A DNA stretch of 64,000 bases. It comes from Albugo candida. Taxonomy: Eukaryota. The notes beneath the pieces are model-generated. The model worked only from the letters and a program-made list of their open reading frames with translations. It searched no databases and had not been told where the DNA came from. The DNA lies in contig JBDOQK010000043.1 of the NCBI GenBank assembly GCA_040437565.1, positions 124,001 to 188,000 of the forward strand. Reading direction: 5' to 3'. Positions 8,714 through 46,553 of this stretch are shown here, piece after piece. The stretch's first letter is position 1. Every line of letters starts with the position of its first letter. A program made the position numbers and the translations under genes.

Positions 8714-8769
8714 TTGGAAGGGTCTGAATTGCCAGACTTTGATAATTGACTTCTCTAAAATGCCTAGGC
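8714..8769 (-). mobile_element. Old 5'-truncated remnant of the LINE 3' end
   Basis: ttggaagggtctgaattgccagactttgataattgacttctctaaaatgcctagg aligns with the LINE 3' termini at 39803 and 43768 (ttgaagttgtctatattacgagaattagacgtaaatgacttctctaatgcctag). Confidence 0.55.
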
Positions 8770-39802: not shown

Positions 39803-40472
39803 GTTGGAGGTGTATATATTACTAGAATTAGACTAACTGACTTCTCTAGTTGCCTAGGCTATCTTGAATAACATATATACNNNNNNNNNNNNNNNNNNNN
39901 NNNNNNNNNNNNNNNNNNNNNNNNNNNNNNNNNNNNNNNNNNNNNNNNNNNNNNNNNNNNNNNNNNNNNNNNNNNNNNNNCAGTATAGCCTCGATATCCG
40001 AGGCTTTCGGCTTTGCGAGCTCCACGCGAAATTTCGCTCTAGCTCTAGCCTGGTCCTTACGCAAGGACTCCTGTGACTTGATAAGGTCAGCAAGAGTGGG
40101 ACTTTTAGTGTCGTCCACACTTGCAGTTGCCTTCTGGTCACCCTGTGACGAGGCAACGACAGTGCCGCATGTACCACCGGTACCACATCCTATACCGGTA
40201 GTACAGGTATTAACCTGTACCGTCACACTGGGGGTGGGGGTACTTTCCACGTCATCACACAGGGGTGATGACTCATCAACAATCATGCAATCACCCAAAG
40301 CTGGGTGACTCATGAGGGTTGCCACGTCACTACAAGTGGACGCTAGCACCCTTGGTTGTGTCGATATGTCGACTTGAACCATTGTTTTCGAGAGGAAAGA
40401 GTTGAAAAAAGGAGGTTTTCGAGTTGTTTTTACTAAATTGGCGGGTTACGTAGTAGCCGGCAAATTGAGAAG
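39803..40472 (-). mobile_element. Full-length-ended non-LTR retrotransposon (LINE), interior collapsed into an N gap
   Basis: 14-bp TSD tgctgacaacttca at 39789-39802 and 40473-40486; an ORF1-like start at 40382; the 3' UTR matches the L1/Tx1-type copy at 43768. Confidence 0.8.
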
Positions 40473-41128: not shown

Positions 41129-43189
41129 CTTTAGCAAGGCGCAAAGCAGCATGGATTGAGGCACATAATCACCATACTGATTTGGCACCTGATATCGGCA
41201 GTTGATGCTCTGGCACTAATGTTAATGAGCAAGTACTATCTCGATCTTATATGATGTACGGTCACTAAAAACGATGAAATGTGCCAAGCTTTCGAGAACA
41301 AAACGTACTCACGTACTTCTTGTGCAGCCATGATCAGGTCTCTTCTGCTGGAAGCAGGACTATAGTGAACAGAATCTGTCATTTCTTCCGTTCTGACCTT
41401 CCTCCATTGAATCGAGACATCAGCAAGTGTAGCACTAGATTTTTTTCGGTGCCGCATGCTGTTTGCAGCGAAAGCAACGAAAAAAAATTAATTTCCCATG
41501 CACAAGAGCATGCTTGGTGTTTGGGCGTTTTGCGTTGCACAATTGTCTACTAACTAAGTGGATGGCACCAGTTACGATTCGGGACGAAATGCCAAGATGA
41601 AGCACAGTCAATCAGATGCAGTTCTCGTTTTATTTTCACTTGAGACACGTCTATATGAGCCAGCAGGTGAACTATGTATTATATTTTCGTAATTACATTT
41701 CGAATGCGTCTTGTTCGGCAAACCTCAAATAGGTCATACTATGAAAATTTCTTTCACAAGAGTGGGTGACGGGTGTGGACCGAGAATCTGTTGCGCACGG
41801 CTGAGAGAACACCTCTCAAAATCAAACAGGAACGTCTCGGAACGTTTCGAATACAACACGATGGTTTGTGACTATAGTGAACGTACGCCATCAACTAGAA
41901 AGAAGGGCGAAAAGCGATCGCGAAATGTCAACACACAGGATGACGAGTCAATCAATCCGTCTAGCGATAGTGCTTTTCTGTACAACGTAAATGAGTGTAA
42001 GCAATGATATGAAGGTTACTAAGATAATCAAATCTTTCGGCGAAAATAACGAGAGTATACGGTGAATGATGGCATTAATGAAAAAAGGTCCCTTGATTGT
42101 CAAGGATTCNNNNNNNNNNNNNNNNNNNNNNNNNNNNNNNNNNNNNNNNNNNNNNNNNNNNNNNNNNNNNNNNNNNNNNNNNNNNNNNNNNNNNNNNNNN
42201 NNNNNNNNNCTTTAGCAAGGCGCAAAGCAGCATGGATTGAGGCACATAATCACCATACTGATTTGGCACCTGATATCGGCAGTTGATGCTCTGGCACTAA
42301 TGTTAATGAGCAAGTACTATCTCGATCTTATATGATGTACGGTCACTAAAAACGATGAAATGTGCCAAGCTTTCGAGAACAAAACGTACTCACGTACTTC
42401 TTGTGCAGCCATGATCAGGTCTCTTCTGCTGGAAGCAGGACTATAGTGAACAGAATCTGTCATTTCTTCCGTTCTGACCTTCCTCCATTGAATCGAGACA
42501 TCAGCAAGTGTAGCACTAGATTTTTTTCGGTGCCGCATGCTGTTTGCAGCGAAAGCAACGAAAAAAAATTAATTTCCCATGCACAAGAGCATGCTTGGTG
42601 TTTGGGCGTTTTGCGTTGCACAATTGTCTACTAACTAAGTGGATGGCACCAGTTACGATTCGGGACGAAATGCCAAGATGAAGCACAGTCAATCAGATGC
42701 AGTTCTCGTTTTATTTTCACTTGAGACACGTCTATATGAGCCAGCAGGTGAACTATGTATTATATTTTCGTAATTACATTTCGAATGCGTCTTGTTCGGC
42801 AAACCTCAAATAGGTCATACTATGAAAATTTCTTTCACAAGAGTGGGTGACGGGTGTGGACCGAGAATCTGTTGCGCACGGCTGAGAGAACACCTCTCAA
42901 AATCAAACAGGAACGTCTCGGAACGTTTCGAATACAACACGATGGTTTGTGACTATAGTGAACGTACGCCATCAACTAGAAAGAAGGGCGAAAAGCGATC
43001 GCGAAATGTCAACACACAGGATGACGAGTCAATCAATCCGTCTAGCGATAGTGCTTTTCTGTACAACGTAAATGAGTGTAAGCAATGATATGAAGGTTAC
43101 TAAGATAATCAAATCTTTCGGCGAAAATAACGAGAGTATACGGTGAATGATGGCATTAATGAAAAAAGGTCCCTTGATTGTCAAGGATT
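41129..43189. repeat. ~980-bp apparently identical direct duplication around an N gap (assembly overlap)
   Basis: 41129-42109 is repeated at 42210-43189, with identical ORFs in both copies. Confidence 0.9.
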
Positions 43190-43418
43190 CCATTACACTG
43201 TTTATATGGTTCTTTAACTACCTTCCTTATCCTATCATGAGCCCCTGACTGTGTGAATATCACTTAAGTCTGACTTCAAACCTAGGGAGGCAAATTTTTT
43301 TCAAGCTTATTACTTGGGTGGGCTCAAACCGCTGCCCACACTGCCGGGGATCGAACTAACGACCTCAGGCAGGGGGTCCGTGCGCTCACGTGGTTAGCCG
43401 ACTGAGCTGGGTACGGGT

Positions 43419-43733
43419 CCCGTCGGGGGGCTTAGCGGTTAGTACACATGTGTTCCGACCATGTGTGCCCCGGTTCGAATCCCGGCGGTGGCAAAAGGGC
43501 TGCGATGGGGCCCCTCGGCGGAGGCAAAGATTCCTCCACGTAAATATCAATCTACTCAATGAAGATATGGACGTGTCAAGACCGCTAGCAACTACACCAG
43601 AAAATAATTGTTCAGGAGTTGGACCGGGCTCTTCAGAGCGTTACATACTAGTGATTAGAATAGAGTAGATAACCATCAAACTGTGGTAACAGAACGGTGT
43701 CTAAATAAAAGTACTACGGGCGAACACCCTTAA
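43419..43733 (+). mobile_element. tRNA-derived SINE 'B' (~315 bp)
   Basis: A-box ggcttagcggttag, B-box ggttcgaatcc (43472-43482) and cloverleaf-like stems; flanked by the 17-bp duplication actgag(c/a)tgggtacggg. Confidence 0.75.
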
Positions 43734-43767
43734 CTGAGATGGGTACGGGAACCCGTCGGGGGCTTAG

Positions 43768-44223
43768 TTGAAGTTGTCTATATTACGAGAATTAGACGTA
43801 AATGACTTCTCTAATGCCTAGACTACAATAAATCAACAATATACATGCAGGATTGATAGATACTAGTCTACACCGAGTTTAATCGGACTGGAAAGAAGTA
43901 GGTGTTAGAAGAAACGCTACTCATGAGCGACTTACAATCTTTAACGTCGCCGAACTTGAAGAAGACTGGGCCGTGCAGAGAATTATCTCCGTGCTGATCC
44001 AGTATGTTGATATGACTCTAATTCTTTTTCTAAGTGCTCCAGCTGTTCCGTAGCATAGCACTGCCGTTGATAAAAATCGTATATGAGCACTTAGTGTGCT
44101 ATAAATCACCGAAACAGCTGGGGCAGTTGGCGTCGAAGTGCCGTGGGCGAAAAGTCTGCGATTCCGATCCGTCCAAATAAAATGAATCGCGACCGCGACT
44201 AATGTAAACCAAAGATCCTCCAG
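43768..44223 (-). mobile_element. L1/Tx1-type LINE: ORF2 C-terminus and 3' UTR
   Basis: Minus strand reads LEDLWFTLVAVAIHFIWTDRNRRLF; the IWxxRNxxxF motif follows the zinc finger in L1/Tx1 ORF2. The 3' UTR ends ...agacaacttcaac. Confidence 0.8.
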
Positions 44224-44323
44224 NNNNNNNNNNNNNNNNNNNNNNNNNNNNNNNNNNNNNNNNNNNNNNNNNNNNNNNNNNNNNNNNNNNNNNNNNNNNN
44301 NNNNNNNNNNNNNNNNNNNNNNN

Positions 44324-44483
44324 TGAGTTGAGTGGCTAGTCTACTCAACCGTCTTCAACCGCGCCAAGTTCACTATTTGTGATTTTTCAGGACACATCTG
44401 CATGTATTATATGTTATTTATTGTAGTCTAGGCATTTAGAGAAGTCATTTACGTCCAATTCTAGTAATATAGACAACTTCAAC
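44324..44483 (+). mobile_element. 3' UTR of a second LINE copy in the opposite orientation
   Basis: 44400-44483 is a near reverse complement of 43767-43850. Confidence 0.8.
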
Positions 44484-46553
44484 TGAGCTGGGGAGGGACC
44501 CGAAAAAAGGTCCGTTGAGCACTTGATGGCAAAATAGATAATATTTATTAAGGTCCTTAGTTCGCCAACTCTGTTTCTACTGCTACTACAAGCCTTCTGC
44601 TACTACTAATCAGCGAATGCCACGTCGATGCCCGTCTTGAAACCGCTTTTAAGCTGGCACTTTCAAGCAGTCATCACTTGATGACTGCTTTCACCAGTAC
44701 CTACCGGTAAGTTCCTGCTGGCCGAGGCGCTGCTTCGACAACAGGCATCACCTTCTAGTATATTCGCTCATTTTGAAAGATCTCCCTCTAGTCAAGAGTA
44801 CAATATCATCTGGTTAATCCAATCTGAGTGATGAAATCGTATCGTAAGCGAGAGAAACACTCGTCTGATCTCTTCCGTCTCGCTAATGATTTTGAGCAAA
44901 GGATCATTCAGAAATCTGTCGTGCAACTTTCAGTCACAAACTCCAATGATTGACAAAGATCCTAATCGCGAGCAAGCTGATCTCGTCGATGTCAGAGGCA
45001 ATGCTTTGTTTCAAGTGGGCAAAGCCAATACAGCACAATTCCTTTTACTCTTCTTTGCAATTATGAGTCTGACAAAATCGATACGCCGTATTTGAAGGTT
45101 CTTTCTAATAGATTGTTTACCATTGTTACGTGAAACTAACCGCTATCTTTATCCTTATTTCTTGTGTCTATTTGATGGAAGGCTGTATTTCAATGGAGCC
45201 CTTTATCGTATCAAAAGCTGTTTATTCCAGTACAATGAAGAGTAGCTGATTGATGTAGAAGTGTAGCGAGGCCACCGCAAAACAACCTTTTATGTGTTCT
45301 GTTCCAGCTGTGTCAAACAAGGCTACATCGAGTCACGACAGAAGCTTAATATCTCAGAATACGCAACCGGGATATTCGACATTAACATCGATCGGTAATG
45401 TACTCATCATGTTGCTATCGACATTACATCAACGCGTTCGCTCAACTTCTATGAGAAGTGCATCTATCCATCGTCGTAGATTGTGATGGGTTGGTTGGTA
45501 CGTACATTATAATCAGACTGGGTGCTCTCATTTTGGTCAAGCTTGCCTCTCAGCTTCCGGGTTGAAATTAATATTGTATCGCTCCGTGTATTATGCTCAA
45601 GCATCATTGCAGACAAACTACATTTATTTCGTCTTATCCATCCAACTGGAAGTTCTATTATCGTAGTTTTTCGACAAACGACGCGCCACACGTTGACTAT
45701 GAAATGTTGTCCCCTTGCCAACTCGCAACTTGGTGATCCATGCGCAATGTGTTGGCTCTACTCAAGCAAACAGGACCCAGCCGATCTCTATTGCACACTT
45801 TGCGTTGCAATGCACCGAAAATTCAATGGTTCTGATGTTTGATAGATCGTACTATAAAAGGAGCCTTGCAATCTCGCTCAATGAATATCAAATCCGATTT
45901 TCAAGTATATGCGCAGTGGTAGCAACAGCGACGCTACGAGCTCGGGCCTGGTGAGAAGAAGCTTGAGGGCACACCCAGAGTTGGGTCTCAATCGCTGTTC
46001 TCAGGTAAGGGGTTCCAACTTTCAAGTACGTGATAAGGACGTATACAAGCCCCTCTGGCTTATCAAAGCACTTCCTATTATCTTCACGCTGGTCGTTATA
46101 GTATTCGTATCATAGTCCTCAATATAACTCATCTAGCTAGAGCTTATGCATCGTGACAAAATAAGTGGCGGATCCACGGCCCATGCGCTGGCTAGTTTAG
46201 CAATACAAATAACGTATTGCTTCTATCCACTGTCTGCCATGAATGCTGCTTTTCTGATTACGCAGCATAATAGAATATAGAAAGTATATTTTCATTATTT
46301 TTGTCCATAAGTACGACATAGTTCTTATAAGTGATGCGTTTTGATTTGCTGCGAGCAGCTGATTGGAGCTTTATATGCTGCATTTTCCTCTCATTTATTT
46401 TACCAACCGAAAACATCATCATGGAAGCATTCATTGTCACATCGTCATCCTTTCTACTAGATAGAAAAATTCTCATCCATCTGATTTAATTTCATATTGT
46501 GCAAATAAAGGCTCATATTTGATTTCGACTTGTAGAGTGCAGCCAAAACAAAC

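Follow-up and report, generated by a model that had tools for sequence, protein, structure and literature searches.

Here we describe a nest of retroposons in genomic DNA of the oomycete Albugo candida and the insertion preference shown by its members. The nest lies at 43161-44518 of a stretch of 64,000 nucleotides (nt) (GenBank assembly GCA_040437565.1, contig JBDOQK010000043.1, positions 124,001 to 188,000 of the forward strand), which was analyzed as a whole and is called the window below. It is composed of two short interspersed nuclear elements (SINEs), named SINE-A and SINE-B, whose heads are transfer RNA (tRNA)-like, and of 3′ ends related to a long interspersed nuclear element (LINE). 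The nest was probably built by repeated antisense, target-primed insertion with a preference, though not an absolute one, for the A-box/D-loop sequence of the SINE heads, the A-box being that of RNA polymerase III (Pol III). The parts of the nest are given below from left to right, and a related tail outside it is given last.

43161-43177, no strand: outer target-site duplication of SINE-A, left copy, 16/17 identical to 44502-44518; the left flank (bin 43100-43150) has single-copy depth in four sequencing runs
43178-43417, minus strand: SINE-A body with the first copy of the head 17-mer (43401-17); it has a B-box-like site and is covered by multi-copy contigs
43419-43732, plus strand: full-length SINE-B with a tRNA-Arg-like head and an AAC end; called by ARAGORN, exact B box
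43733-43749, no strand: second SINE-A head 17-mer, which is the right-hand duplication of SINE-B, 16/17 identical to 43401-17
43752-43767, plus strand: initial 16 nt of another SINE-B (SINE-B′), interrupted after GCTTAG and lying in a 35-nt direct repeat; the reverse complement of the LINE terminus directly adjoins it
43768-44223, minus strand: 3′ part of an apparently L1-like LINE with the C-terminus of open reading frame 2 (ORF2; 43921-44223, frameshifted), the 3′ untranslated region and an AAC terminus; it enters the gap
44224-44323, no strand: scaffold gap within the nest, 100 N
44324-44483, plus strand: 3′ end of a tail-bearing element with an AAC end; its last ~85 nt match the minus-strand LINE at 93% identity
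44482-44501, minus strand: third copy of the SINE-A head with the extreme 5′ end of SINE-A; it adjoins the right outer duplication, and its terminal letters agree with the ACCCC of other copies
44502-44518, no strand: outer target-site duplication, right copy, 16/17 identical to the left copy
39804-39880, minus strand: fourth AAC-ending tail, of the abundant subfamily that predominates in the public contigs, 81-82% identical to the other tails; it adjoins the gap 39881-39980

The outer duplication, the 17-mer copies, SINE-A, SINE-B, the SINE-B′ head and the LINE ends had all been described in a sequence-only reading of this DNA, and each was reproduced by direct reading and repeat finding. The SINE-A head 17-mer was found at three sites (43401-17, 43733-49 and 44482-97). 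The 35-nt direct repeat (43401-35 and 43733-67) joins this 17-mer over 1-2 nt to the opening 16-17 nt of SINE-B. An inverted repeat of 53 nt, 94% complementary, pairs the end of the minus-strand LINE (from 43768) with the plus-strand end (to 44483). Alignment at the termini showed that the nest elements all terminate in AAC.

Four AAC-ending 3′ ends are present in the window, and three of them adjoin the reverse complement of a SINE head which is cut inside the A-box. All three head insertions are antisense and occupy the same A-box position, before CGG. On the tRNA-sense strand the host letters at the three junctions are ...AGCTCAG(T), ...GGCTTAG and ...ATCTCAG(T); the complement of the AAC end comes next, where intact hosts continue with CGG, and the break falls at what we take to be the D-loop, between tRNA positions 14 and 16-17. 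Chance is ruled out as the cause of three of four AAC termini falling at one nucleotide position of a head. The earlier statement that the AAC end lies antisense to its host at the A-box is right for all three nest junctions, but the fourth tail at 39804-39880, which had been overlooked, does not conform to it.

The flanks of the inserted elements point to host sequence. SINE-B bears the 17-mer on both sides (16/17 identical), and the left copy runs into the SINE-A body. The flank of the minus-strand LINE is a SINE-B head (TAAGCC...) and not a SINE-A head, and since this one flank differs in this way the flank must be host sequence and not a part of the element. The SINE-B′ head was itself hit by the minus-strand LINE, and with this the step earlier called self-nucleating, in which a SINE supplies a new target, is seen in an inserted SINE-B. 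Duplications are 16-20 nt for the head insertions, and the target-site duplications of both SINEs in the window match at 16/17 positions. Duplications of ~16-17 bp had been claimed for all three inserts; both copies can be seen for SINE-B but not for the other two inserts, and the duplication partner of the minus-strand LINE falls in the gap.

The 62,019 countable bases of the window hold 413 YTYAG sites and 33 GCTYAG sites. Of these 33, four fall in tRNA-like heads, all of them those of the nest; none of the remaining 29 in the window does so or carries such an element, and therefore the 6-nt motif alone does not explain the nest. For the string AACTRAGC the window shows no enrichment (4 sites, with 4.1 expected).

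Recurrence of the arrangement was surveyed in Logan contigs of four public runs (X1, X10, X13 and X3), which were matched to 43100-44600 at 80% likeness and gave 688-1135 contigs per run. This sample is biased to nests, as joints were listed only if both sides lie on the nest; contig depth in it is not copy number and it gives no rate. The listing comprised 24 of 779 loose-end rows and 32 of ~3600 pieces. Among those 24 rows the loose ends of the tail break after TGA (8 contigs in X1) or TGAGCT (11 in X1 and 10 in X13), and none breaks at AAC. The depth of the bin after the tail, divided by that of the tail bin, was 0.45, 0.47, 0.42 and 0.46, where ~0.14 is expected if alignments ended at AAC. 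The AAC-TGAGCT junction thus occurs at many loci in contigs of the four runs, and the arrangement is not confined to this locus.

Seven distinct joints were found in the contigs, and five of them consist of TGAGCT or TGAGAT and then head-like letters. In three joints the SINE-B 5′ end stands 12 letters after the tail and TGAGCT, which is tandem insertion around one duplication. Two of these three 12-mers, when read on the other strand, form a 7-nt stem starting with G, then T and AGCTCAGT, with 4 more letters before them, like genuine tRNA 5′ ends. Another joint, from a second locus, has the order of the window, namely tail (plus), SINE-A-type head, SINE-B head and tail (minus), and in one joint the AAC element stands beside a different SINE-A-type head. 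The head-to-head junction of SINE-A and SINE-B is spanned by a diverged contig at ~82-85% identity (X10 record 9, X3 record 25). Depth at 43417/18 compared with 43432 was 776/1207, 466/1535, 1791/5967 and 227/752 (64%, 30%, 30% and 30%), so that 30-64% of the depth found 14 nt inside SINE-B carries on across its 5′ end into a head of SINE-A type.

SINE-A, the main host, is a SINE derived from a tRNA and is present in very many copies. Its B-box-like site (43347-57) shows 1 mismatch, its head contains the A-box-like block AGCTCAGTCGG, and ARAGORN made no call on SINE-A. A second copy was not found within the window, and contig depth, when summed, exceeds the unique depth by a factor in the hundreds, with up to ~75 contigs on single positions. 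At its 3′ end (24-32 contigs per run) the flanks are random (agreement 0.41-0.43), and at its 5′ end (13-21 contigs per run) ACCCC comes first and random sequence follows; this marks SINE-A as a host rather than an element with site specificity. Its tail has no similarity to the LINE tails. Other SINE-A copies share ~3-7 nt beyond 43178, with a consensus end of ...TACT (plus strand) in all four runs, and by this comparison the window copy seems to be without the last few nt of the family 3′ end.

The head of SINE-B was called by ARAGORN as tRNA-Arg(ccg) at 43418-43494, with an exact B box at 43472-82 and a folding z of -3.1. SINE-B is multi-copy in the four runs, with ~5-20 contigs on its positions and varied flanks. 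The B-box-like sites in the window are only those of SINE-A and SINE-B. A search of Rfam on 42000-46000 gave no tRNA or relevant family (the tRNA model had no match at E <= 1) and one chance-level hit to a long non-coding RNA, and a head-shaped pattern with 2 mismatches allowed found, beyond chance-level matches, only SINE-B.

LINE coding sequence survives at a single place in the window, as an ORF2 C-terminus of ~100 amino acids (aa) at 43921-44223 of the minus strand. Protein search with this remnant gave 7 proteins at E <= 0.001 among 272 candidates, two of them named as proteins of Albugo laibachii Nc14; the relative P0004 (1398 aa, 70% identical) has the domains Exo_endo_phos and RVT_1. 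The best solved relative was human L1 ORF2p, with E = 3e-48 over endonuclease and reverse transcriptase, and R2 gave 1e-20 over the reverse transcriptase alone. Grouped by this similarity to L1 ORF2p in PDB, the LINE family appears to be L1-like; it is of the apurinic/apyrimidinic endonuclease (APE) type and equipped with a reverse transcriptase. Two overlapping tblastn pieces (43953-44223) place a frameshift near 44075; the ORF2 C-terminus is split into two overlapping frames, and the window copy is therefore dead. Past 44223 the minus-strand LINE is continued by 8 and 11 contigs in two runs (agreement 0.73-0.75), and the last ~55 nt of the tail have very high depth in four runs.

The plus-strand piece at 44324-44483 had been read as a second LINE 3′ end. 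Only its last ~85 nt resemble the minus-strand LINE, and it may belong to another LINE subfamily or to a SINE which shares the tail.

In the mechanism that we propose, SINE-A would have been inserted first, with a 17-bp duplication. AAC-ending retroposons (the L1-like APE LINE, the tail-sharing element and SINE-B) would then have been inserted successively and always antisense to the host. Each time the nick would be made at the same A-box/D-loop place of a SINE head, on the tRNA-sense strand and just before CGG, and the nicked strand would prime reverse transcription, with 1-2 nt of possible pairing with the RNA end. With a second break 17-20 nt away, nearly the whole head up to its 5′ end would be included in the duplication. 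Each duplication would recreate the target on both sides, from which the tandem order of duplication, SINE-B, duplication and SINE-B′ would follow, and each SINE-B would add its own head, such as the one that the minus-strand LINE has hit.

We infer that the preference comes from an endonuclease which recognizes approximately GCTYAG(T)CGG, possibly helped by pairing of the RNA 3′ end or of read-through RNA with the nicked strand. An endonuclease with a preference for the A-box/D-stem had been put forward earlier for a pattern of which the fixed position, the orientation, the duplications and the recurrence are observed; 3′ read-through homology would give the same pattern. A more far-reaching proposal is that any Pol III head, in a tRNA gene or in a SINE, serves the LINE and its SINE partners as a precise target at the D-loop/A-box, to which they would be led by antisense head sequence read through into their own RNA. 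Each insertion would split the internal promoter of the host and silence it while the target is recreated, and the resulting self-propagating 'SINE-killing' nests would police a rival high-copy SINE and erode tRNA genes. We hold this proposal to be doubtful.

Several points weigh against insertion with an A-box/D-loop preference. The fourth tail at 39804 has a non-tRNA flank, which starts with TGAAG and is not head-like (its site is ACTTCAG), and it represents an off-target insertion. The random flanks of SINE-A, the main host, go against strict specificity. The three 17-mers differ from one another (by 1 mismatch in one comparison, and in the other by 1 mismatch and 1 indel), the center of the nest is an N gap, and the scaffold has at least one demonstrable joining artefact. 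The contig joints were selected for having both sides on the nest and come with no unbiased denominator; two of the seven are non-conforming, one with TGAGCTG and unrelated letters and the other with TG and a sense-oriented B-box region. TGAGCT is nearly universal after the tail, which would be expected no less if these letters belonged to the RNA of the element. The likeness between the tails of SINE-B and the 39804-type LINE is weak (8/11 terminal nt match, and a GTCTAA block is common to both), and it is from this terminal match that mobilization of SINE-B by the L1-like LINE family is suggested. When folded, the 3′ tails showed no structure in excess of that in shuffled sequences and no significant stem-loop.

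A first alternative is that a short nick motif (~YTYAG) acted together with chance or local effects, and that the nest arose by tandem duplication, unequal crossing-over or gene conversion and is in part an assembly artefact. The window (42% G+C) does have ten 100-N gaps, one of them at the nest center. About 1 kb upstream of the nest, 41129-42109 and 42210-43190 are 981 bases with 100% identity on either side of the 100-N gap 42110-42209. This repeat is an unmerged contig overlap and the gap is an assembly artefact, the first contig ending 13 nt inside SINE-A; therefore joins in this scaffold can be faulty. Among the 32 pieces listed, no contig bridges the gap 44224-44323 or spans all of 43100-44600. 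The 35-nt repeat, with its period of 332 nt, could have come from a tandem duplication of 1.1 copies, TTCAG is all that the off-target copy at 39804 has in common with the heads, and YTYAG occurs 413 times in the window.

However, SINE-B, the plus-strand tail element and, in a different head, the minus-strand LINE stand at the same head position, and this cannot be yielded by duplication. The matching outer duplication and the complementary SINE-A halves (the body left of the gap, the extreme 5′ end to its right) argue that the two sides of the gap belong together and speak against a false join. A mis-scaffolded join of repeats had been named as a condition that would refute the earlier reading; a joining artefact does exist upstream, but the nest sides are tied to each other by these two features. 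The junction kinds also recur at diverged loci in the four runs, and the 29 non-head GCTYAG sites are empty. We regard this alternative as unlikely.

A second alternative, which we judge improbable, is that the letters after AAC (TGAGCT onward) are part of the retroposed unit, either as a conserved 3′ end or as read-through, so that no target preference exists and the likeness to heads would stem from how the tail originated. In X1 and X13 the contig flanks diverge after a common TGAGCT (agreement 0.45), a ratio of 0.42-0.47 in depth suggests that most depth-weighted copies continue into head-like sequence, and TGAGCTG is followed by non-head letters in one joint. These observations suit the alternative, but the letters behind the minus-strand LINE are those of a SINE-B head, and behind the 39804 copy they are TGAAGT.... 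To the left of SINE-B the 17-mer runs into the SINE-A body, and SINE-A family sequence is found there in 45-70 contigs. Three 12-letter variants follow TGAGCT across loci, yet the SINE-B start stands at a fixed distance. The duplication of SINE-B is two-sided, and the outer duplication adjoins a third head copy which is the SINE-A 5′ end, an arrangement that misfits a pairing of the LINE 3′ end with the SINE-A 3′ end.

Reverse transcription primed by 5′ fragments of tRNA or SINE RNA cut in the D-loop, with the supposed target being a primer of 16-20 nt copied to DNA, can hardly be credited: the head pieces do stop within a few nt of 5′ ends (the third copy at the SINE-A terminus) and two joints resemble tRNA positions 1-16 with the cut in the D-loop, but the 17-mer stands on both sides of SINE-B with its left copy continuing into the SINE-A body, copies 1 and 2 stop 3-4 nt short of the SINE-A 5′ end, two joints have 4 nt beyond the presumed +1, and head pieces end near the 5′ end by simple arithmetic because insertion is at nt 16-17 and the duplications are of 17-20 nt.

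To our knowledge, SINEs and LINE targeting are barely described in oomycetes. A literature search, with Repbase outside it, found no published description of such nests in oomycetes or in Albugo. Ty3-type elements are known for Pol III-directed targeting and for their association with tRNA genes. Integration directed by the Pol III complex, of the TRE5-A/Ty3 type, was rejected for the nest, as the breaks here are inside the head, in the A-box and at a fixed nucleotide, and not at a distance. Passages of PMC3706591 describe Dewa, of the Tx1 clade in zebrafish, as targeting a tRNA-Leu spacer, and TRE5-A-type elements as landing at a distance via host proteins. The nest elements are like these, and like Ty3, in being retroelements associated with tRNA genes. 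Dewa is placed in the spacer (PMC3706591, in the same passages), whereas the insertions here are inside coding/promoter sequence.

The NeSL group contains elements specific for tRNA genes, of which the relevant part of PMC4640811 names NeSL-1_TV (tRNA-Pro), LIN15_SM (tRNA-Arg) and LIN25_SM (tRNA-Glu). These are likewise non-LTR (long terminal repeat) retrotransposons at a specific place in tRNA gene sequence. They differ, as far as that part of PMC4640811 goes, in having a restriction-like endonuclease and one tRNA species each, where the nest has an APE enzyme, two SINE heads and possibly several tRNAs. The Dada-tI/tY transposons of Perkinsus marinus have, according to passages of PMC3706591, the duplication TAGCTC, which is part of the A box. 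The targeting of the A-box core is a likeness, and TAGCTC overlaps the site used here (PMC3706591, as excerpted). An identity of Dada type was rejected, since Dada has a DDE transposase and 6-7-bp duplications in that account (PMC3706591), and here the duplications are of 16-20 bp, the remnant is APE/RT (reverse transcriptase)-related and the AAC ends are without inverted termini. The tandem SINE-like tRNA clusters reported in sections of a downy-mildew pangenome study (PMC11540230) are, on that description, a different phenomenon from the nest.

A close parallel is the pair of Tx1-Mar LINEs and SINEU-3 in crocodilians, for which passages of PMC4494074 report a shared Mariner target, a 16-bp duplication and tandem insertions that sandwich the duplication. 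Both systems join an APE-type LINE with a non-autonomous partner, use one target in another repeat with ~16-bp duplications, and show opposite orientation and tandem insertions (PMC4494074, same passages). They are unlike in that the crocodilian target is Mariner and the SINE heads there are derived from small nuclear RNA, while here the target is the Pol III A-box and the SINE brings a new target with it (PMC4494074, as far as described there). In this comparison the element here is placed by its similarity to L1 ORF2p and is no more than a candidate for the Tx1 clade. In PMC4494074 a family is taken as specific, in the passage that defines this, when one sequence type occurs in >20% of its flanks; head flanks were found here at 3/4 window junctions and at 5/7 contig joints, the latter a biased sample among joints on the nest, and these counts give no rate for the family. 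That the nest elements behave like a target-preferring LINE/SINE pair is partly supported, by the enzyme type, the fixed site and the tandem insertions around a duplication. The earlier view of this nest as new stands in so far as no oomycete description was found, but tRNA-specific non-LTR elements, a target shared by Tx1 and a SINE, and A-box-targeting Dada are in print, as passages of PMC4640811, PMC4494074 and PMC3706591 attest.

If the preference holds genome-wide, an oomycete would possess a consortium of an APE-type LINE and SINEs for which the best conserved stretch of Pol III genes is a safe harbour. Such a preference would also account for retroposon nests and many assembly gaps in small, compact pathogen genomes, and it would give a natural case of a SINE supplying new targets to its own mobilizer as well as an endonuclease with a long and defined recognition site. 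It bears on annotation too, since a SINE head, whole or split, is easily mistaken for a tRNA gene.

Searches for copies in other collections gave no matches: an exact 25-nt stretch of the tail was scanned against metagenome_contigs, and one of SINE-A against viral_contigs, metagenome_contigs and genome_contigs. A protein-word search with the junction-spanning open reading frames, one of 45 aa for the tail with its flank and one of 84 aa for reverse-complemented SINE-B running into the SINE-A head, returned no candidates.

The remaining observations concern the surroundings of the nest. The housekeeping genes in the window include apyrase, GTP cyclohydrolase II, adenylate kinase, WD40 proteins and ESF1. 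Right of the nest, 44519-44600 has 6-11x the unique depth in four runs, whereas the left flank is single-copy, and the right flank has a 14-nt block which is 93% complementary to the B-box region of SINE-A. Judged from this one B-box-like match of 14 nt, the insertion site of SINE-A may be close to the 5′ end of a repeat that is weakly tRNA-like and of low copy number. A weak tail-like match is present at 8722-8767 (79% over 48 nt) in unrelated surroundings and may be an old degraded tail. In contigs of X1 and X13 a joint of 43738 with 44490 brings a SINE-B-type 3′ end and a tail 3′ end together tail-to-tail with ~11 nt between them, and this spacer would be near-palindromic around AGCT.

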